Assembly (NCBI GenBank): GCA_001784555.1
Contig: MFRM01000003.1
Location: forward strand, 65,606-129,605
Origin: Candidatus Melainabacteria bacterium RIFCSPHIGHO2_02_FULL_34_12
GTDB taxonomy: Bacteria; Cyanobacteriota; Vampirovibrionia; 2-02-FULL-35-15
DNA: 64,000 bases
Reading direction: 5' to 3'
Each line of letters opens with the position of its first letter. Within the stretch, counting starts at the first letter, position 1. A program made the position numbers and the translations under genes. Of the stretch, positions 1 through 6,026 are shown in pieces. The notes below the pieces were generated by a model, which saw only the letters and a program-made list of their open reading frames with translations, searched no databases and was not told where the DNA came from.

Positions 1-1
1 T

Positions 2-433
2 GGAACTACTACTGGACGTCCAAGAAGAGTTGGATGGCTTGATCTCGTTCTTCTTAGATATGCGGTGAGAGTAAATGGACTAGACTGTCTGGCACTTACA
101 AAAATAGATGTTCTGGATAATTTAGATGAAATAAATATTTGTGTGGCTTATGAAGATTCATTAACCGGCGCAAAATATTATGATCTTCCACTGGCTAGTG
201 GAATATTTAAAAGAGTAAAACCCATATATGAAACTTTAAAAGGTTGGAAAACATCTACAAATAAATGCAGAGCAAGTAATGAGCTTGCTCCAAATGCCCA
301 AAAATACATGGACAGAATACAGGAGATTTTAGAAATTCCAATTGCAATAGTAAGTGTCGGACATAAGAGGCACCATACTATAATTATTGAGGATCCTATT
401 CACGGACCAAAAAGAGTTCTGCAAAAGGGATAA
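2..433 (+). CDS. purA: adenylosuccinate synthetase, 3' part (gene starts before the window)
   Basis: Frame from nt 2 reads [14 protein letters not shown]...[10 protein letters not shown]...IVSVG, the conserved PurA C-terminal motifs. Confidence 0.97.
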
Positions 434-440
434 ATTAAGT

Positions 441-1757
441 ATGGACGACCCGGCGTATCGGCGTATCGGCGTATCGGCGAAAAAGAAATTTGCTGATTCG
501 ACTATCCAATATAAATCCCCTGATCACGCAGCTGTTCGAACACAGGAATATTTATATAATCAATTATTTCCGTATATTGGGAATAAACGAAAATTATTGC
601 CATTAATTTTTGAAGCAATATTAAAAACAGAAATAACAAAAGGACTTTTTGTAGATTTTTTTTCCGGAAGCGGTGTAGTCTCACGACTTACAAAAAAAAT
701 CGGCTTTCAGGTTATTGCAAATGACTGGGAGCCGTATTCTTATTTTTATAATCATGCATATATAGAACAAAACGAATATCCTGCCTTTGAAAAACTTGGC
801 GGAATAAAAAAAGTTTATGAATATTTAAATAACCTTGAAGGTATTCACGGATATATAAGTAAGTTTTATTGTCCGTGGAATGATAAAAAACCAGACATAA
901 AAAGAGAAAGAATGTTTTTTACTCATAAGAACGGAATGAAAATTGATGTGATTAGGGAAAAAATAGAAGAATGGGAAAGCAAAGGAAAAATAAACTTAAA
1001 AGAAAAATCCATACTTCTTTCTTCACTTATTTATAGTGCCAGCTATGTAAGCAATACCAGTGGTGTCTTTAAAGGTTTTCATAACGGCTGGGGTGGAAAA
1101 ACAGGGACAGCTTTGTATAGAATATTAAGCGATATTAAATTGGTTCCTCCAATTCTTTTTAATAATAACCAAAAGAACAAGGTTTATCAAAGTGATTCAC
1201 AGAACCTTGCAGAATCGTTTTGTAGAGACGAGGTTACCTCGCCTCTACAAAAAAACAAAATAAATATTGCATATCTTGATCCGCCTTATAATCAGCATCC
1301 TTACGGAAGTAATTACCATGTACTAAATACAATTGCTCTATGGGACAAGCCGAAAATAAACAAATCGATTTTAGTAAATGGTAAAAAAACAAATAAAAGT
1401 GCCATAAGAACTGACTGGAGAACTGAAAGAAGATCAGCATATAACTACAAAAACGAAGCTACAAATGCACTTGAAAAACTGATTACAACAATAGATTCTG
1501 ATCATATTTTAATGAGTTATAGTACAGACGGAATTATTGATCTTAAAGATGTATTAAATATTTTTGCAAGTAATGGAAAACTTTCCATGGTTACAAAAAA
1601 CTATAAACGTTACAGGGTAAGCACACCACGTATGTCTGAAAAACCTTATAACGTAGAGGTCGTTTTTATTCTGGATAAAAATAAAACAAGTTCAAGAGGT
1701 ATTATAAAAAAACTTTTAGGTGAAATTAAAGAACAGGATAAGTGGCTTAGTATGTAG
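441..1757 (+). CDS. D12-class N6-adenine DNA methyltransferase, no neighbouring endonuclease
   Basis: YIGNKRKL, DFFSGSG (SAM motif I) near the N-terminus and YLDPPY (motif IV) near the C-terminus. ATG 441 preferred over TTG 387, which overlaps purA. Confidence 0.88.
   Translation: MDDPAYRRIGVSAKKKFADSTIQYKSPDHAAVRTQEYLYNQLFPYIGNKRKLLPLIFEAILKTEITKGLFVDFFSGSGVVSRLTKKIGFQVIANDWEPYSYFYNHAYIEQNEYPAFEKLGGIKKVYEYLNNLEGIHGYISKFYCPWNDKKPDIKRERMFFTHKNGMKIDVIREKIEEWESKGKINLKEKSILLSSLIYSASYVSNTSGVFKGFHNGWGGKTGTALYRILSDIKLVPPILFNNNQKNKVYQSDSQNLAESFCRDEVTSPLQKNKINIAYLDPPYNQHPYGSNYHVLNTIALWDKPKINKSILVNGKKTNKSAIRTDWRTERRSAYNYKNEATNALEKLITTIDSDHILMSYSTDGIIDLKDVLNIFASNGKLSMVTKNYKRYRVSTPRMSEKPYNVEVVFILDKNKTSSRGIIKKLLGEIKEQDKWLSM
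451..480. repeat. octamer tandem repeat (CGGCGTAT)x3 + CGGCGA in the methyltransferase 5' end
   Basis: cggcgtat cggcgtat cggcgtat cggcga read directly. Confidence 0.9.
1221..1249. repeat. family A REP-like palindrome, in-frame in the methyltransferase (CRDEVTSPLQ)
   Basis: tgtagagacgaggttacctcgcctctaca; differs at two positions from the dapA copy at 33550. Confidence 0.92.
1734..1749. repeat. 16-bp direct repeat, left copy (CAGGATAAGTGGCTTA)
   Basis: Identical to 2341-2356; the pair brackets the ORF6N gene. Confidence 0.9.
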
Positions 1758-1832
1758 TTTTCGTTATGTTCTTGATACCCTAGGTTACATTCGATTTGAC
1801 AAGACTTTCTCTTATGTTTGAATATCTGACAT

Positions 1833-2336
1833 ATGTCAAAGCTAATCTTAATATCAGAAGGAATAGAAAACAAAATATATTTTATAAGGGGGGTGAAAGT
1901 CTTGCTGGATGAAGATTTGGCAAAGATGTATCAAGTCTCAACAAAAAGACTAAATGAACAAGTAAAAAGGAATAAAAAGAGATTTCCTAAAGATTTTATG
2001 TTTCAACTCACGTTTGAAGAAATTGAAAACTTGAGGTCGCAAATTGCGACCTCAAAAGGTGGTAGAAGATATTTGCCTTATGCTTTTACCGAACAAGGTG
2101 TAGCAATGCTTTCAGGAGTGTTAAATAGTAAAAGAGCTGTTCTAGTAAATATAGAAATCATGAGAGCTTTTGTAAGATTAAGAAAAGTGATTTCTCAGAA
2201 TAAAGAATTAGCAAAGAAAATTGAAGAGCTTGAAGGTAAGTATGAAAAACATGACATGGATATACAAGGCATTTTCAATGCAATACATAAAATACTAACT
2301 ATAGAGGAAAGACCAAAGAGAAAAGTAGGTTTTTAA
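1833..2336 (+). CDS. ORF6N/KilA-N-like DNA-binding domain protein
   Basis: IRGVKVLLDEDLAKMYQVSTKRLNEQVKRN..RFPKDFMFQLT..LRSQIATS..GGRRYLPYAFTEQGVAMLS is the typical ORF6N signature. Confidence 0.92.
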   Translation: MSKLILISEGIENKIYFIRGVKVLLDEDLAKMYQVSTKRLNEQVKRNKKRFPKDFMFQLTFEEIENLRSQIATSKGGRRYLPYAFTEQGVAMLSGVLNSKRAVLVNIEIMRAFVRLRKVISQNKELAKKIEELEGKYEKHDMDIQGIFNAIHKILTIEERPKRKVGF

Positions 2337-2340
2337 AAAG

Positions 2341-2356
2341 CAGGATAAGTGGCTTA
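2341..2356. repeat. 16-bp direct repeat, right copy
   Basis: caggataagtggctta identical to 1734-1749. Confidence 0.9.
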
Positions 2357-2357
2357 C

Positions 2358-2762
2358 TTAAAACGGCGTCTCAGAAACTGTTTGTGTCTGAGGAACAGCA
2401 CTTGAATTATTGTCTCGTTTGCTTCCGAGAAGTCTGATGTTATCAGCTACAACTACAGGTCTCACCATTTGTTCGCCTGTTTCTTTATGTGCCCAGCTGT
2501 CCCATCTGATTTTTCCTTCTATACCAACAAGTGAGCCTTTTTTTACGTACTCACCTGCAATTTCTGCTGACTTTCCCCATATCTCAATATCAAACCAGTC
2601 TGTCTGTGAGTCTTTCACAGGACGGTTTACTGCCATGGTAAAAGTAGTAACTACTTTACCGGATTCAAAATATCTCATTTCTGGATCTTTCCCTGCACGT
2701 CCGACTAAAACTATATGATTTATATCAACCTGTGGTCTTGCATTGTTAGTTTGCATATTCAT
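2358..2762 (-). CDS. ssb: single-stranded DNA-binding protein
   Basis: INHIVLVGRAGKDPEMRYFESG (cyanobacterial-type SSB), C-terminal PF. Start 2762 or 2756 after AAGGGG; the longer ORF start lies inside a palindrome. Confidence 0.95.
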   Translation of the reverse strand: MNMQTNNARPQVDINHIVLVGRAGKDPEMRYFESGKVVTTFTMAVNRPVKDSQTDWFDIEIWGKSAEIAGEYVKKGSLVGIEGKIRWDSWAHKETGEQMVRPVVVADNIRLLGSKRDNNSSAVPQTQTVSETPF

Positions 2763-2769
2763 CCCCTTT

Positions 2770-2797
2770 GTTGGGGCATGCCATGGCATGCCCTTAT
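2770..2797. repeat. family A palindrome, intergenic (ABC1 kinase/ssb)
   Basis: gttggggcatgccatggcatgcccttat. Confidence 0.85.
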
Positions 2798-2803
2798 ACT
2801 TTT

Positions 2804-4627
2804 TTATTCTACCACTTTACCTTTTAAATATGCCCAGCCAGCAAGGGAAAAAGAAGCAAATACTGAAAAAATTAAAATGGTAAAACCTGTAAGGCTTATA
2901 ATCGGGTCTGTCTTTTCTACCATTATTCTTCCTATAAAAACTAGACAAAAAACAAAAATAATTCCGTAAGATAATTTTGACTTCAGATAAAATTTCGTGG
3001 CCTCTGCTTTAAGAAACTTTTTTTCGCGAATTTCTTTTTTTATTTCTGTGTTATTTATGTTTTCTTTATTTGTTCCTGTTTCATTCAAGTGTTTTCCGTT
3101 CTTTTTTTCAATCTCATTTACATATCTGGGAAGCGATCTAATTACGGCAGAATATGCTTTTATTTTTCCAACAAACTTATTTTCCTCAGGAAAAAGATAC
3201 TTCAAATAAAACCATTTTGACTTAGGAAGCTTGTCTTTAAGCCAGTTCTGCAGATATGGTTTAGTAACTGAAATTAGACTAAAATCAGGATCCAGTGTTC
3301 TGCAAACTCCTTCCAGAGTACCTGTCATTCGTAATGTATAAGTAAATTTACTGGGTAATTTCATGGGCTTTTCGTCAATAAGAATTTTTAAATCATCCTC
3401 AATATCGCTTACATTTAGAGAATTTAACTTTGTACCTTCATAATATTTATAAGCTGCTTTTTCAATAACTCTTTTTAAAGGCTGAAGATCAGAGCCTGAT
3501 TTTAAAAGATCAAGTTCTTTTAAAGTATCTAACAAAGCATCAGTATCATTCCTTACTATATTTATAAGAACATTTGCCAGTTCTTCCCTTACATTTTCAC
3601 TAATCCTTCCAACCATTCCAAAGTCATAAAAAACAATAGTCCCATCATCCTTTACAACAATATTGCCAGGATGCGGATCAGCATGATAAAAACCATCTTT
3701 AAAAAACTGCTTAAAGTAAGCATTTACTAGAATCTTCGCTAGTTCTTTTGGATTATGATTTTTATTTTTAAGTGAAGCAATATCAGTGATTTTTATACCT
3801 GGTACATATTCAATCGTTAAAACTTTTTTAGTAGTATGATGCCAAAAAACTCTCGGTATATAAATTCTTTCTTCATGTTTTAAATTTCTTCTAAAGTGAT
3901 CTGCATTTTTCCCTTCCTGGATAAAATCTATTTCTTCAAAAAGCGTTCTCCCAATCTCATCTATAATCTGAACCCATTCTCTGCCTTTCCCGATTTTTGT
4001 ATATCTTTCAAGAAAAGTAGCAAGGCACCGTATAATAGCCAGATCACGGTAAAACAAAATATTTAAATCGGGTCTTTGTACTTTTACAACAATCTTTGCC
4101 CCGTTAATTAATTCTCCTTTATATACCTGACCAATACTTGCAGAAGCAATTGGCTCTTCATCAAAGGATTTAAAAATCATATTAAGTGGTTTTCTGAGTT
4201 CTTTTTCTAGAAATGGCTTTATCTCAGAAAATGGAATTGGCGGCAATGAATCCTGCAGTTCAGAAAGTACACCTATAAACTCTTCAGGAATAATATCCGG
4301 TCGGCTCGATAAAAATTGTCCGATTTTAATAAATGTAGGACCCAGCTCAAGAAAAGCTTCTTTTAAATGGACAGGACTTCCGGGATCTTTTTTTAATATT
4401 TTCCTAAAAAGTCTAAAAAATACTTTTGTTATTTTTCTAAATCTGGGATCTCTTAAACAATAATAACTAAGCAAAAATGACTCATGGGTAAATGTAAAAA
4501 TATTTCCATTAAAAACAATGTTTCTTTCCGGAAGTTTGTATCTTTCCTGTACCAATTTTTTGTCATACCAGAGGCGACTTTTAAAGCCATTGTTTATTGA
4601 TACTTTTTTTTCAAGTACACTTGTCAA
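2804..4627 (-). CDS. ABC1/AarF/UbiB family atypical kinase
   Basis: ELGPTFIKIGQFLSSRPD, IASASIGQVY, VKVQRP, GFYHADPHPGN, DFGMVG; two C-terminal TM segments. Confidence 0.93.
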   Translation of the reverse strand: MTSVLEKKVSINNGFKSRLWYDKKLVQERYKLPERNIVFNGNIFTFTHESFLLSYYCLRDPRFRKITKVFFRLFRKILKKDPGSPVHLKEAFLELGPTFIKIGQFLSSRPDIIPEEFIGVLSELQDSLPPIPFSEIKPFLEKELRKPLNMIFKSFDEEPIASASIGQVYKGELINGAKIVVKVQRPDLNILFYRDLAIIRCLATFLERYTKIGKGREWVQIIDEIGRTLFEEIDFIQEGKNADHFRRNLKHEERIYIPRVFWHHTTKKVLTIEYVPGIKITDIASLKNKNHNPKELAKILVNAYFKQFFKDGFYHADPHPGNIVVKDDGTIVFYDFGMVGRISENVREELANVLINIVRNDTDALLDTLKELDLLKSGSDLQPLKRVIEKAAYKYYEGTKLNSLNVSDIEDDLKILIDEKPMKLPSKFTYTLRMTGTLEGVCRTLDPDFSLISVTKPYLQNWLKDKLPKSKWFYLKYLFPEENKFVGKIKAYSAVIRSLPRYVNEIEKKNGKHLNETGTNKENINNTEIKKEIREKKFLKAEATKFYLKSKLSYGIIFVFCLVFIGRIMVEKTDPIISLTGFTILIFSVFASFSLAGWAYLKGKVVE

Positions 4628-4631
4628 TTTC

Positions 4632-5027
4632 TTACCGTTTTTGCAAATTAATTTGTGATTTTAAATCTGCAAGCTCTGCACGCAAGCTTGCAATTTCTGC
4701 CCTTATGTCATTTAATTCCATTGAATCAAGCAAAGCGTTATTTGTAAGTTCAGTTAATTTGTCTTTTATGAAACCCTTTACCTGAATTTCACTTATTTGA
4801 GCCCTGTGACTTATTTCACTAAGCACCTGAAATAATTCTTCTTTTGCTTTTTCTTTTATTTTTGCTTGCGGTTGATCTTTACTTTCATTAGCTTTAGGAG
4901 ACCCAGCATTATCTTTAAAGTTTTTTACCTGCAAAGCAAGATCACATGCCCTTGACTCAAGTTTTTCCTTAATTACATCAACAGCAGCTTTTGCAGTAAG
5001 TAACAGTTTTGTAAAATCTTTTAACAT
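4632..5027 (-). CDS. hypothetical coiled-coil protein directly upstream of the ABC1 kinase
   Basis: 131-aa ORF ending 4 bp before the kinase start; helical heptad C-terminus. Confidence 0.7.
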   Translation of the reverse strand: MLKDFTKLLLTAKAAVDVIKEKLESRACDLALQVKNFKDNAGSPKANESKDQPQAKIKEKAKEELFQVLSEISHRAQISEIQVKGFIKDKLTELTNNALLDSMELNDIRAEIASLRAELADLKSQINLQKR

Positions 5028-5093: not shown

Positions 5094-6026
5094 ATGACAG
5101 GGGAAAATTCAAAAAAAAGTTTAATCTGGGTTTATCCACCAAATAAATGGATTTCGAATTGCAATAAGACATTTGTTTACGGGTGGACAAAACCAGGATG
5201 TAGGTTATATGCAGTCTGTAAAGGCAAAATTAAAAAGATAAAAGTATTTCCAAATGGAAACTTTGCACAAAAAATAAAACTACCACAGAAAAAAAATATT
5301 GTTCAGTTAGTTCAGGTGTTAAACGGAAAAGAAAAAACAATAACAAGATGTGTCATTGCGAGGGAGCAAAGCGACCGAAGCAATCCCGATCGATTTTCGC
5401 GAGGTAGATCGGGATTGCTTCGTCGGCACTTTGTGCCTCCTCGCAATGACATGGTCATCGTCATCGATCCCGGTCATGGTGGCAAAGAACATGGTACACA
5501 CTCACCAAAGGGTGTTCCTGAAAAAGTTTATAATTTACAAATTGCAAAAAACCTCGTACAGGCATTGCACACAACACCCCAACAATGGAAAATTTACCTC
5601 ACTCGTTCTACGGATAAATTTGTCTCTTTAAAAGATCGTGTCCGTTTTGCAAAAAATAAAAAATGTAATTTATTAATCTCAATTCACCACAATGCACTTC
5701 CAGACAATGAAGATCCACTTAAGCATAGAGGAGTCGGGATTTATTACACACATGATTTTGTAAAACCACTTGGAAAATCACTACTAGAAAGTATTTCAAA
5801 ATCTGTAAGGGCACGCCATGGCACGCCCTTACAAAAATACGGTTTGTATAAAAGAGATTTCGCACTTACAAAACCTGACTTTTGTCATGCAGTGTTAATT
5901 GAATGTGGATTTTTAATTCATCCGGTAGAAGGAGAAATTATTACACAAAAAAATACACAGAAAAAAATTGTAACCGGTGTAAAAAAAGCCTTATTTACTT
6001 TTTACCGTCGACAACCACTTAAGTGA
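5094..6026 (+). CDS. N-acetylmuramoyl-L-alanine amidase (Amidase_3) carrying three repeat-derived segments
   Basis: IDPGHGG, EK, SIHHNA and LIECGF zinc/catalytic motifs. Confidence 0.9.
   Translation: MTGENSKKSLIWVYPPNKWISNCNKTFVYGWTKPGCRLYAVCKGKIKKIKVFPNGNFAQKIKLPQKKNIVQLVQVLNGKEKTITRCVIAREQSDRSNPDRFSRGRSGLLRRHFVPPRNDMVIVIDPGHGGKEHGTHSPKGVPEKVYNLQIAKNLVQALHTTPQQWKIYLTRSTDKFVSLKDRVRFAKNKKCNLLISIHHNALPDNEDPLKHRGVGIYYTHDFVKPLGKSLLESISKSVRARHGTPLQKYGLYKRDFALTKPDFCHAVLIECGFLIHPVEGEIITQKNTQKKIVTGVKKALFTFYRRQPLK
5351..5451. mobile_element. family B 101-bp MITE-like element, in-frame in the amidase
   Basis: Terminal inverted repeats TGTCATTGCGAG / CTCGCAATGACA and inner pair GAAGCAATCCCGATC / GATCGGGATTGCTTC. 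Confidence 0.9.
5556..5584. repeat. degenerate family A copy in the amidase (VQALHTTPQQ)
   Basis: gtacaggcattgcacacaacaccccaaca aligns with gtagaggcgttgcgcgcaacgcctctac (32301), mostly by G>A changes. Confidence 0.6.
5804..5833. repeat. family A palindrome in the amidase (VRARHGTPLQ)
   Basis: tgtaagggcacgccatggcacgcccttaca. Confidence 0.88.

Follow-up and report, generated by a model that had tools for sequence, protein, structure and literature searches.

The locus lies in a 64-kb window, the whole stretch of DNA that was analysed, from a groundwater bacterium, where an ORF6N gene bounded by a direct repeat separates the tail-to-tail ends of a DNA methyltransferase gene and of ssb. The features are the following:

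441..1757, plus strand: D12-class N6-adenine DNA methyltransferase gene (PF02086, E 9.1e-28)
1726..1749, plus strand: direct repeat copy 1, 24 nt at 22/24, with a perfect 16-nt core at 1734-1749
1750..2340, plus strand: inserted unit of 591 nt, repeat-bounded, composed of a degenerate first operator, an operator-like palindrome, the ORF6N gene and 4 nt
1774..1788: operator-like palindrome GATACCCTAGGTTAC, family consensus GTAACC-N3-GGTTAC
1827..1838: 12-nt palindrome TGACATATGTCA spanning the ORF6N start codon (self reverse-complement match)
1833..2336, plus strand: ORF6N-domain protein of 167 aa, with an N-terminal DNA-binding domain and a long C-terminal helix (PF10543, E 3.7e-37)
2031..2055: perfect 25-nt palindrome TTGAGGTCGCAAATTGCGACCTCAA in the ORF6N coding sequence, codons 67-75
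2333..2356, plus strand: direct repeat copy 2, core at 2341-2356
2358..2789, minus strand: ssb, single-strand DNA-binding protein gene (PF00436, E 2.3e-30)

The 16-mer CAGGATAAGTGGCTTA is found at 1734-1749 and 2341-2356, both on the plus strand and with 0 mismatches; these are its only two sites in the 64-kb window, and no further one appears there at up to 2 mismatches. By chance 0.05 matches are expected, and two sites occurred in 0/100 shuffles. The direct repeat grows leftward to 24 nt (1726-1749 / 2333-2356), 22 of which are identical. Copy 1 forms the final codons of the methyltransferase gene (...KEQDKWL-SM-TAG, stop at 1755-1757); copy 2 begins 4 nt past the ORF6N stop, in the same frame as copy 1, and reads CAG GAT AAG TGG CTT ACT TAA (2341-2361), its TAA sharing 2 nt with the ssb stop (minus strand, 2358-2360). 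The last two codons and the stop of the methyltransferase gene (AGT ATG TAG, 1749-1757), in or beyond the repeat, are read as element-derived, and copy 2 together with positions 2356-2361 (ACT TAA) is read as the displaced native methyltransferase end. An earlier, sequence-only reading had claimed a perfect 16-bp repeat at these two places, enclosing the ORF6N gene only, whose merged copies would restore an ending ...QDKWLT* over the ssb stop; all of this holds, for both sites are free of mismatches, ORF6N is the sole Pfam match between the copies, and copy 2 is in frame with a 2-nt overlap. Methyltransferase tails throughout the family end in ...(E/Q)D(K/R/S)WL, followed by 1-4 variable residues. 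The repeat is too short here to tell a foreign from a native tail.

A pair of identical 16-mers is not rare genome-wide, as 59 isolated perfect pairs with a length of 16 nt or more and a spacing of 200-3000 nt occur in the 2.1-Mb genome; its evidential weight therefore resides in its placement, flush with both edges of one gene unit, at the last methyltransferase codons and at the ssb stop. Many of the 59 pairs consist of AT-rich sequence, and several bound cassettes like the ORF6N unit. The junctions are not an assembly artefact, because in 4/4 runs separate contigs span the methyltransferase-ORF6N and the ORF6N-ssb joints with 0 differences. No contig joint skipping the 607 nt (1750-2356) was found over positions 1-5000 in the same 4/4 runs, from 4 studies, all being of the occupied form; since contigs drop rare variants and cannot reveal them (one of the four runs may also be the source of the genome), this counts neither for nor against an empty site or excision.

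The inserted unit contains a single ORF, its only Pfam match is ORF6N, and it holds no integrase or transposase, in keeping with the earlier claim of a single-gene cassette; the accompanying claim that the insertion preserved the host gene is likewise confirmed by the intact end that the methyltransferase retains. No terminal inverted repeat was found in the unit. Its GC content is 31.3% vs 34.0% for the genome, and its gene is preceded by 83 nt of own regulatory sequence and followed by 4 nt, without gene fragments. A sigma-70 promoter scan of the unit returned matches no commoner than in shuffles.

The ORF6N protein matches PF10543 over the whole model length (residues 13-96, 126.9 bits vs a cut-off of 27.8), and also PHROG anti-repressor families; a search against NCBIfam gave no match. 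In its AlphaFold2 model (mean pLDDT 71.9), the closest folds are the Dachshund/SKI DNA-binding domains, at no better than E 0.086, and the PDB matches include no enzyme or nuclease fold; nor did Pfam or NCBIfam match any homing-endonuclease nuclease domain (LAGLIDADG, GIY-YIG, HNH etc.). The closest relatives (P0002-P0004) are 84-88% identical, and among the matches listed from a metagenome scan with P0003 the relatives reach at most 62% identity. The genome also holds a 5'-truncated ORF6N copy (on C24), and ORF6N fragments occur in relatives too.

The motif GTAACC-N3-GGTTAC stands in one or two copies 46-118 nt upstream of the ORF6N start at 12 of the 15 family loci listed, as well as in the window, and farther upstream, at -176, in a 13th family locus. 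It also precedes dprA in 11/12 family genomes, and is found before comM-like, recJ, pilC-like and mutL-like genes and three IS200-like genes. Its identification as a LexA box was rejected, for the lexA-like gene has GTAC-N4-GTAC upstream, without the GTAACC motif. At its left end the unit agrees with other ORF6N units of the family, in which the host stop likewise falls inside the first operator: ATG TAA CCC (L245), GTG TAA CTC (L235), GTG TAG TTG (L239) and ATG TAG TTT (window).

The palindrome TTGAGGTCGCAAATTGCGACCTCAA inside the ORF6N gene folds as DNA at -12.4 kcal/mol (z -7.3), and is conserved family-wide, with compensatory changes. Three roles considered for it found no support. As a recombination breakpoint it should lower the correlation of pairwise distances between adjacent 90-nt windows, computed over 178 genes, yet r is 0.40 there vs 0.15-0.45 elsewhere, with no dip. 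An antisense terminator was rejected as a general explanation, the flanking A-run being weak (mean 2.6 A in 8 nt); in the window itself, the minus strand at this point shows a hairpin plus T-run. As for an RNA element, G-U pairs are rare on both strands (30 and 37 of 1350 cells), and Rfam returned only a sub-threshold rivX (19.8 bits vs a gathering score of 100).

In the family, orthologues of the methyltransferase (74-81% identity) adjoin purA in 10/11 genomes, and none of 10 relatives has an intact ORF6N gene at the methyltransferase-ssb site; the ORF6N unit is lineage-specific at this site. The empty methyltransferase-ssb junction that the sequence-only reading had proposed to look for was not found among the family-level relatives examined: a saccharopine-dehydrogenase-like gene separates the two genes in six of the eight whose locus reaches ssb. 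A search of the whole present genome (G000), which is 94.7% complete, did not find this gene, so that its deletion must be assumed too. In one relative, G007, the methyltransferase and the saccharopine-dehydrogenase-like gene have a 9-nt overlap; such overlapping tail-to-tail ends are usual in the family, which makes an ancestral methyltransferase/ssb overlap plausible. In the loci of 10 relatives, searched as far as 12 kb downstream and allowing 1 mismatch per 16-mer, the methyltransferase end does not recur, and in 9 relatives the nearest ORF downstream of the methyltransferase has no integrase domain.

The ORF6N insertion is real, and it is one case of a recurring pattern in this genome and across phyla. 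Around ten other repeat-bounded mini-cassettes, mostly of 600-770 nt, sit at tRNA genes or tail-to-tail gene junctions of the genome; isolated perfect repeats 18 nt or longer form 11 pairs at a spacing of 600-800 nt, vs 0 at 400-600 and 0 at 800-1000. Their toxin-antitoxin-like cargo comprises HicB/HicA, RHH+PemK, PemK, an AbiEii-like protein and Fic; while these other cassettes carry toxin-antitoxin-type modules, the ORF6N unit is a single gene. Four cassettes adjoin the 3' half of a tRNA gene that is intact, part of the tRNA being repeated at their other edge. For two others, relatives show the empty, overlapping junction of tail-to-tail genes: dprA and its convergent neighbour overlap in 8/11, and lpxB and udg are at most 10 nt apart in 5/10. 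In the dprA cassette of G000 the repeat copies share an 86-nt perfect core and are 78% identical over 59 residues; the tail that was displaced resembles that of most relatives, and the one now used that of the relative G003. No sequence common to the cassettes of the genome was detected by blastn-short. ORF6N units of the family occupy many different gene ends; a case in point concerns two of them (L238 and L233), each located before a convergent gene, with 34-nt repeats matching at 29/34, of the final codons of the upstream gene, and at 26/34, respectively.

Beyond the family, direct repeats flank about 14% of the ORF6N genes in other phyla vs about 1% of shifted controls, with some 85% of the loci having no detectable flanking repeat. 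Perfect repeats of at least 19 nt are found at 9/73 ORF6N loci vs 1/347 controls, the nine including three tandem ORF6N arrays and two REP-like cases; local-alignment scores of at least 14 are reached at 11/78 loci vs 5/476 controls, and scores of at least 16 at 8/58 loci vs 1/208 controls in an independent set of metagenome loci, those listed from the scan with P0003. Tandem arrays hold 4 copies at L048, 3 at L109 and 2 at L052. Across phyla, many of these repeats consist of a gene 3' end or half a tRNA in duplicate, and the copies differ chiefly at synonymous sites: the L096 repeat extends over 130 nt including the stop, with 23 mismatches but only 3/43 residues changed, and that of L046 is a tRNA 3' half. 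Repeat lengths at other ORF6N units are 19, 19, 26 (130 imperfect), 34 and 34 nt, and the range over equivalent cassettes is 16 to about 180 nt. Between housekeeping genes of very distant phyla stand ORF6N genes that are 50-70% identical, e.g. between atpA and atpG, between two genes for NADH-dehydrogenase/antiporter-type membrane subunits, and between the two parts of a split metH.

The reading preferred here, held with moderate confidence, is that the unit was inserted by single-crossover, Campbell-type integration, the repeat representing attL/attR-like junctions and the recombination being supplied from outside. A self-contained unit (operator, promoter region and one gene) would have entered where the convergent methyltransferase and ssb genes overlap at their 3' ends. 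It would have arrived as a cassette, probably a circle, that already bore a short segment resembling the methyltransferase end between the ORF6N stop and the operator, and a single crossover would leave the 16-nt repeat (22/24 when extended) as an attL/attR-like pair. Following the crossover the methyltransferase would read into the element and end in ...WL-SM-stop, with its native end, ...WL-T-stop, displaced to the far side and still overlapping the ssb stop, so that neither host gene is damaged. As a DNA-binding protein is all that the cassette encodes, recombination would have to be the work of the host machinery or of a trans-acting recombinase. The sequences show the repeat and the unit with its boundaries; the circular intermediate, the single crossover and the enzyme responsible are inferred. 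No recombinase is linked to the cassette (C3:67339-67961): the genome has four Phage_integrase matches, none of them near (C7:33840, C3:183943, C7:67848 and C5:174580), and 0 resolvase matches. Sixteen identical bases are few for RecA-type recombination, which counts against this reading, as do the predicted junction missing from relatives and the large majority of ORF6N loci without a flanking repeat.

In favour of such an integration are the placement of the repeat, the left end shared by ORF6N units, the recurrence of the design in the family, the genome and other phyla, and the nature of the repeats elsewhere. Around a perfect core, the copies of L096, of L200 and of the dprA cassette differ mostly synonymously; the two repeat copies of these other cassettes are diverged homologues, a pattern that fits an element-borne homologue of the target end.

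A rather unlikely alternative is that the target was duplicated upon insertion, as the sequence-only reading had it, either by widely staggered cuts or by replicative template switching, in which a fork leaves the methyltransferase end, copies the ORF6N unit from a different molecule and returns 16 nt upstream via microhomology. The perfect core agrees with this, and the 8 nt to the left of copy 2 (TTAAAAAG, in the ORF6N stop region) are like the host TTAAAGAA at 6/8, resembling a return microhomology; the extended 22/24 match is equally readable as template-switch microhomology. Moreover, ORF6N units are located at many gene ends in the family, so that some mechanism must create new sites, and variable repeat lengths suit template switching. 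However, transposase and terminal inverted repeats are absent, repeats of 16 to about 180 nt match no single transposase, and copying from one template would not yield the synonymous differences seen in L096, L200 and the dprA cassette; a long target duplication is thus the weaker reading.

It is quite improbable that the unit is the last remnant of a larger integrated element, i.e. a prophage or island with an integrase targeting the methyltransferase 3' end, from which deletions spared an anti-repressor-like gene between attL and attR. The match of ORF6N to phage anti-repressor families points that way, as do the duplicated tRNA halves and gene ends, a classical integrase footprint, the toxin-antitoxin cargo, a type of gene resisting deletion, and the frequency of ORF6N fragments (the C24 copy and those of relatives). 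Along the same line, the tycheposon preprint describes islands holding partial tRNAs and degenerate element remnants, and treats partial tRNA flanks as a general principle of tRNA-targeting elements (10.1101/2020.12.28.424599). Yet the unit is clean, without gene fragments; this minimal layout is seen again at sites and in phyla unrelated to each other; cassette sizes bunch at 600-800 nt instead of spreading; and at least nine targets in a 2.1-Mb genome would imply nine decayed elements, each reduced to one gene.

The last alternative concerns G003, a relative of another genus, where CLLISQFAISSYIGRKTGF and a stop directly follow the methyltransferase stop. This stretch bears an ORF6N-type palindrome with 13-bp arms, 10 residues identical to the homologue P0003 and an ORF6N-like C-terminus, and that palindrome type turned up at a single place in the relatives' loci (about 117 kb) and at a single one in all of G000; the sequence is a probable ORF6N remnant, which makes ORF6N at the methyltransferase end old or recurrent. 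Besides, the ORF6N unit at the gltX end is common to G003 and G007, so that inheritance across genera can occur. On the other hand, hmmsearch with the peptide alone was not significant (E 4), G003 pairs with G007, which has no ORF6N at the methyltransferase, and not with G000 (ABC1 identities of 64% vs 53%), and neither hmmsearch, nor the palindrome, nor the operator motif revealed a remnant in the loci of the other relatives. The sequence-only reading had named an ancestral ORF6N at this locus as a finding that would refute it, and the probable G003 remnant goes part of the way towards that. That ORF6N is ancestral in the family, with the repeat a coincidence or the trace of an old local rearrangement whose copies gene conversion has kept similar, is very improbable; a non-coding copy would not stay 16/16 over family-level divergence.

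Returning to integration by a single crossover, a wider and speculative view, doubtful as a whole, would be that stand-alone ORF6N genes are very widespread minimal cassettes of one DNA-binding gene and its control region, devoid of a recombinase, which loop out between their repeats, travel as DNA and re-enter homologous gene ends by short-homology single crossover, being co-expressed in this lineage with dprA, comM, recJ and pilC, and with the internal palindrome serving as a cis-acting DNA site in the cycle. If true, a large share of the small accessory genes in compact genomes, among them ORF6N, toxin-antitoxin pairs and abortive-infection-like genes, would be single-gene cassettes that enter harmlessly between tail-to-tail or operon genes, their sole footprint being a duplicated gene end or tRNA half. 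It would provide a simple, searchable mark of recent gene gain in metagenome-assembled genomes without recognisable mobile-element genes, would explain the 50-70% identical ORF6N genes amid housekeeping genes of very distant phyla, and would tie such cassettes to natural transformation in a testable way, the handles being the palindrome within the gene and the operator that DNA-uptake genes also have. The literature searched, at the level of listings and passages, yielded no description of ORF6N as a cassette, of repeat-bounded ORF6N units or of the internal palindrome.

Among known systems, insertion sequences and transposons differ from the ORF6N unit, which has no transposase, terminal inverted repeats or target duplication of fixed length; at both ends it has an attL/attR-like direct target repeat, without a gene for a tyrosine or serine recombinase. 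Integron gene cassettes, thought to move as circles via a recombinase encoded elsewhere, are similarly units of one gene, about 0.5-1 kb in size, whose cargo is often of toxin-antitoxin or unknown type, and tandem ORF6N arrays exist. Unlike them, the ORF6N unit has no attC, with 4 nt from stop to repeat and no intI or attI nearby (none of the 25 longest of 62 inverted repeats pairs the cassette ends), has its own regulatory region and sits at ordinary gene ends. The CIMEs of streptococcal ICE/IME systems are, in the published model, mobilised only when a cognate element provides the recombinase and, like the ORF6N unit, are flanked by att-type repeats and lack recombination and transfer genes; they are, however, several kb long, derive from a recognisable ICE/IME and share its att site, whereas here there is one 504-nt gene, ORF6N cassettes have many targets, the repeat copies can be diverged homologues, and no cognate helper was found in the ORFs next downstream of the methyltransferase in 9 relatives. 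Element-borne replacement of the 3' end of a target gene is known from phage 21 and e14 in icd, where, likewise, the host gene is saved by the element-borne end, the native end lies at the other junction, and the copies differ largely synonymously; yet elements of this type span tens of kb and have their own tyrosine recombinase, while the ORF6N unit encodes no enzyme. To our knowledge, no natural population of cassettes living by Campbell-type integration has been described. In the laboratory version of this process, a non-replicating circle with a gene-end fragment gives an insertion-duplication, and with a 3'-terminal fragment its outcome is the arrangement seen here, namely the gene left whole, the insert and, beyond it, a displaced part of the gene in second copy.

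In the source genome, a single ORF6N-domain gene stands between the end of an adenine methyltransferase gene and ssb, as follows.

2-433: end of purA, at the window start
441-1757: D12-class adenine methyltransferase gene, upstream of the ORF6N gene
1833-2336: ORF6N-domain gene, 167 residues
2358-2789, strand opposite to ORF6N: ssb
Strand opposite to ORF6N, as ssb: ABC1-kinase gene

The 16-mer CAGGATAAGTGGCTTA was found at 1734-1749 and 2341-2356 in a window search (0.05 matches expected), with no third site in the 64 kb even allowing two mismatches; extended, the pair is identical at 22 of 24 nt. Copy 1 codes for QDKWL, with which the conserved part of the methyltransferase ends, and then comes Ser-Met-stop; copy 2 starts 4 nt past the ORF6N stop, and the same frame runs on to a Thr-stop sharing 2 nt with the ssb stop. 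Since independently assembled contigs of four sequencing runs bridge both junctions with 0 differences, an assembly artefact is excluded. In the same contigs, each of the four runs has a depth of 100-160 over 2005-2171 and of 3-12 on either side; many other organisms of the sampled communities have ORF6N core stretches that are near-identical. Other repeats of the locus are the octamer CGGCGTAT, present three times in tandem at 455-480, close to where the methyltransferase reading frame begins, to which GGCGTATCGGCG strings elsewhere in the genome are similar, and a GC-rich palindromic repeat of the GGGGCATGCCATGGCATGCCC type, upstream of ssb (2767-2804) and within an amidase-like gene (5798-5835), which belongs to a genome-wide hairpin repeat family.

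A methyltransferase orthologue (74-81% identity) is present in 10 of 11 same-family genomes, with purA just upstream in most of the fetched family loci. All tails read (E/Q)D(K/R/S)WL plus one to four variable residues, and the DNA downstream of them is different in each genus. Among the eight relatives with a locus extending as far as ssb, six share the order methyltransferase, 0-3 kb of variable DNA, a convergent saccharopine-dehydrogenase-like gene, ssb and ABC1; the dehydrogenase-like gene is absent from the locus in the source genome and in the relatives G003 and G008, and was not found anywhere in the source genome. At this locus none of the relatives carries an intact ORF6N gene, nor does any of them have the methyltransferase end twice, so that ORF6N lies outside the conserved arrangement. 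The repeat and the insertion bounded by it, as proposed in the sequence-only reading, hold up; the exact empty methyltransferase-ssb junction that this reading predicted was seen neither in relatives nor in the contigs of the four runs.

The window is not an isolated case. The 2.1-Mb assembly was searched for isolated perfect direct repeats, and pairs of at least 18 nt number 11 at 600-800 nt spacing, against 0 at 400-600 and 0 at 800-1000, a few of the 11 being paralogous genes or AT-rich chance pairs. Eleven further mini-cassettes with repeats of 16-109 nt are as follows.

Further mini-cassettes of the source genome (contig, positions)
C1, 6931-7736
C3, 13844-14622
C3, 195624-196262
C7, 132955-133735
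C12, 84021-84736
C19, 5749-6458
C19, 101846-102556
C20, 98149-98911
C3, 222909-223434
C3, 280653-281821
C3, 204221-205705

These carry toxin-antitoxin, abortive-infection-like or unknown cargo and are sited at tRNA genes or gene ends. The clear cassettes of the genome hold HicB/HicA, RHH+PemK, a second PemK pair, an AbiEii-like nucleotidyltransferase, DUF5674, Fic, a CsrA-like gene (in the cassette with the 109-nt repeat) and unknowns. In four, the site is the 3' half of an intact tRNA gene (Trp, Pro, Ile, Leu) and a partial tRNA copy is on the far side; in others, what is duplicated is a housekeeping gene's end, as for dprA, or DNA just beyond a stop, as at lpxB and at an aminotransferase junction, where a 38-nt repeat starts 11 nt past the stop. 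Compared with one another, the cassettes showed no common sequence. The empty dprA site is a tail-to-tail overlap with the convergent neighbour in 8 of 11 relatives, and at the empty lpxB site 5 of 10 relatives have at most 10 nt between lpxB and the uracil-DNA-glycosylase gene; in the source genome both hold about 680-700 extra nt and a displaced gene end. The dprA tail-to-tail junction seems to be used repeatedly. In G004, of another genus, it holds a different small gene of 118 aa (locus L147, 2203-2559). The source genome also has a second ORF6N copy, lacking its first ~35 codons (C24, 33399-33794; locus L002, 1540-1941), next to a divergent putative acetyltransferase-like gene and then a gene which, read from its N-terminus, is putatively AAA-ATPase-like.

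The stand-alone ORF6N protein of ~170 residues is widespread, forming at least 8000 clusters at 60-70% identity with names from many phyla; among the matches listed from species-representative genomes, 597 of 603 pattern-matching stretches encode an ORF6N relative. Most ORF6N genes are solitary amid housekeeping genes, some adjoin restriction-modification genes, and an integrase is a neighbour at only 1 of 70 loci. Single ORF6N genes sit between atpA and atpG (L072), two NADH-dehydrogenase/antiporter-type membrane-subunit genes (L042), gmd and an epimerase gene (L075) or the two parts of a split metH (L092), and after a split carB-N gene (L096). Where flanks sufficed, 9 of 73 loci were flanked by a perfect direct repeat of 19 nt or more, three of these being tandem ORF6N arrays and two REP-like repeats, versus 1 of 347 shifted controls; a local-alignment score of 14 was reached by 11/78 loci versus 5/476 controls, and in an independent metagenome-contig set a score of 16 by 8/58 versus 1/208. 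The duplicated part is the end of a 1274-residue gene in L051 (INKVGK-AR-stop versus INKVGK-STR-stop), a tRNA 3' half in L046 and 130 nt of the carB-N gene end, stop included, in L096; in L238 and L233, of the window's family, 34-nt repeats (29/34 and 26/34) copy the upstream gene's last codons, with a convergent gene ahead. The idea of a single-gene cassette is borne out. Tandem arrays of diverged ORF6N genes also occur, in L048 (2156-4516, four genes), L109 (948-2672, three) and L052 (1350-2621, two), neighbouring copies having 94, 47 and 38 nt, respectively, in perfectly identical blocks.

Where the repeats are long, their sequences show that the two copies are not fresh duplicates. A case in point is L096, in which 23 mismatches over 130 nt change only 3 of 43 residues, keep the stop in both copies and flank a 26-nt perfect core on both sides. 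The dprA cassette of the source genome has an 86-nt perfect core within a pair of 59-residue tails that are 78% identical, the displaced one resembling most relatives' and the one now in use that of G003, and locus L200 has the same third-position difference pattern as these two. Copies that differ mostly at synonymous or third positions around a core fit a single crossover rather than duplication from one template: the incoming molecule would bring its own foreign gene end, and the crossover would leave a hybrid at each junction and displace the native gene end. The main rival is a template switch through microhomology at the window repeat, which is itself too short to reveal the crossover pattern; an 8-nt near-match left of copy 2 could be that microhomology. 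If one template had been copied when the unit was inserted, the pattern of L096, dprA and L200 would not result. A target duplication made by insertion, as the sequence-only reading had it, fits less well than att-like junctions, for the long-case copies have diverged and repeat lengths of 16 to ~180 nt are not the product of a single transposase.

The family's ORF6N units have a common left end, namely one or two GTAACC-N3-GGTTAC palindromes 46-118 nt before the start codon. These are found in the window (1774-1788) and in 12 of the 15 family loci shown, a 13th having one at -176; among all ORF6N copies the motif lies upstream in 15 of 188, versus a background of 0.005 per 200 nt. The upstream host gene often has its stop within the first palindrome; in the window this palindrome is degenerate, and ATG TAG TTT directly follows the 16-nt core. 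The repeat is thus the true edge of the unit, which counts against random decay of a larger island. In 11 of 12 family genomes, one of them without any ORF6N found, the same motif precedes dprA by ~40 nt, and in the source genome it also precedes a comM-like gene, recJ, pilC-like and mutL-like genes, three IS200-like genes, a Bro-N gene and DUF4160. Its sites there include:

C20, 97139
C9, 2529
C23, 13448
C26, 55323

The motif-bearing genes look like one regulon of DNA uptake, recombination and mobile genes, and the ORF6N unit seems to be tied into this host regulon. The motif is distinct from the palindrome that precedes the lexA-like gene.

The ORF6N protein is predicted to comprise a small alpha/beta DNA-binding domain and a long helix (mean pLDDT 71.9), the closest solved folds being Dachshund/SKI DNA-binding domains at an E of only 0.086. 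Domain searches found no nuclease or recombinase signature in it; the four integrase-family hits of the source genome all lie away from the unit, and a resolvase hit is absent. Within the coding sequence, at codons 66-76 (window 2031-2055), lies a perfect palindrome of a type 25-33 nt long, with the consensus AACTTGAGGTnnCAAWTTGnnACCTCAAGTT in the window and loci L037-L116. Arms of at least 10 bp occur in 56 of 91 ORF6N copies versus 0 of 455 shuffles. In an alignment anchored on the DFMFQL motif, upstream of the palindrome, 89% of cells are paired, against 27-44% with the partner slid, and 223 show changes in both partners, versus 16-58; in 500 shuffles neither the covariation score nor the paired-cell share was ever attained. 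G-U pairs are rare on either strand, compensatory changes being strictly Watson-Crick, and three ORF6N genes keep the same nucleotides read in another frame. In the model the stretch is a helix end and a low-confidence loop (residues 71-76, pLDDT < 50). Selection on the palindrome is therefore at the level of DNA. Within the ORF6N family, neither a dip in tree congruence at the palindrome nor a general terminator context was found. Two decayed copies are broken at it, one upstream of locus L246 and the other in G003.

In G003, a 19-codon frame, CLLISQFAISSYIGRKTGF-stop, lies immediately 3' of the methyltransferase stop (L010, 2186-2245; equal to L032, 287-343). It combines an ORF6N-type palindrome, ten residues identical to the ORF6N homologue P0003 and an ORF6N-like C-terminus; its profile score by itself is non-significant (E 4), but this palindrome type is found just once in ~117 kb of relatives' loci and just once in the whole source genome. 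The frame is probably an ORF6N remnant, in a genus other than that of the source genome. As G003 clusters with G007, which has no ORF6N there, and not with the source genome, I tentatively favour two gains at the methyltransferase end over one ancient gain.

To sum up, the mechanism appears closer to duplication of the att-like junctions of a single-gene integrative cassette that lacks an integrase than to the target duplication of a transposon. Literature searches on ORF6N cassettes found no paper describing them. The nearest described things are cis-mobilizable elements, integrative elements that replace gene ends, and integron cassettes; the ORF6N unit lacks defining features of the latter two and probably of the first.
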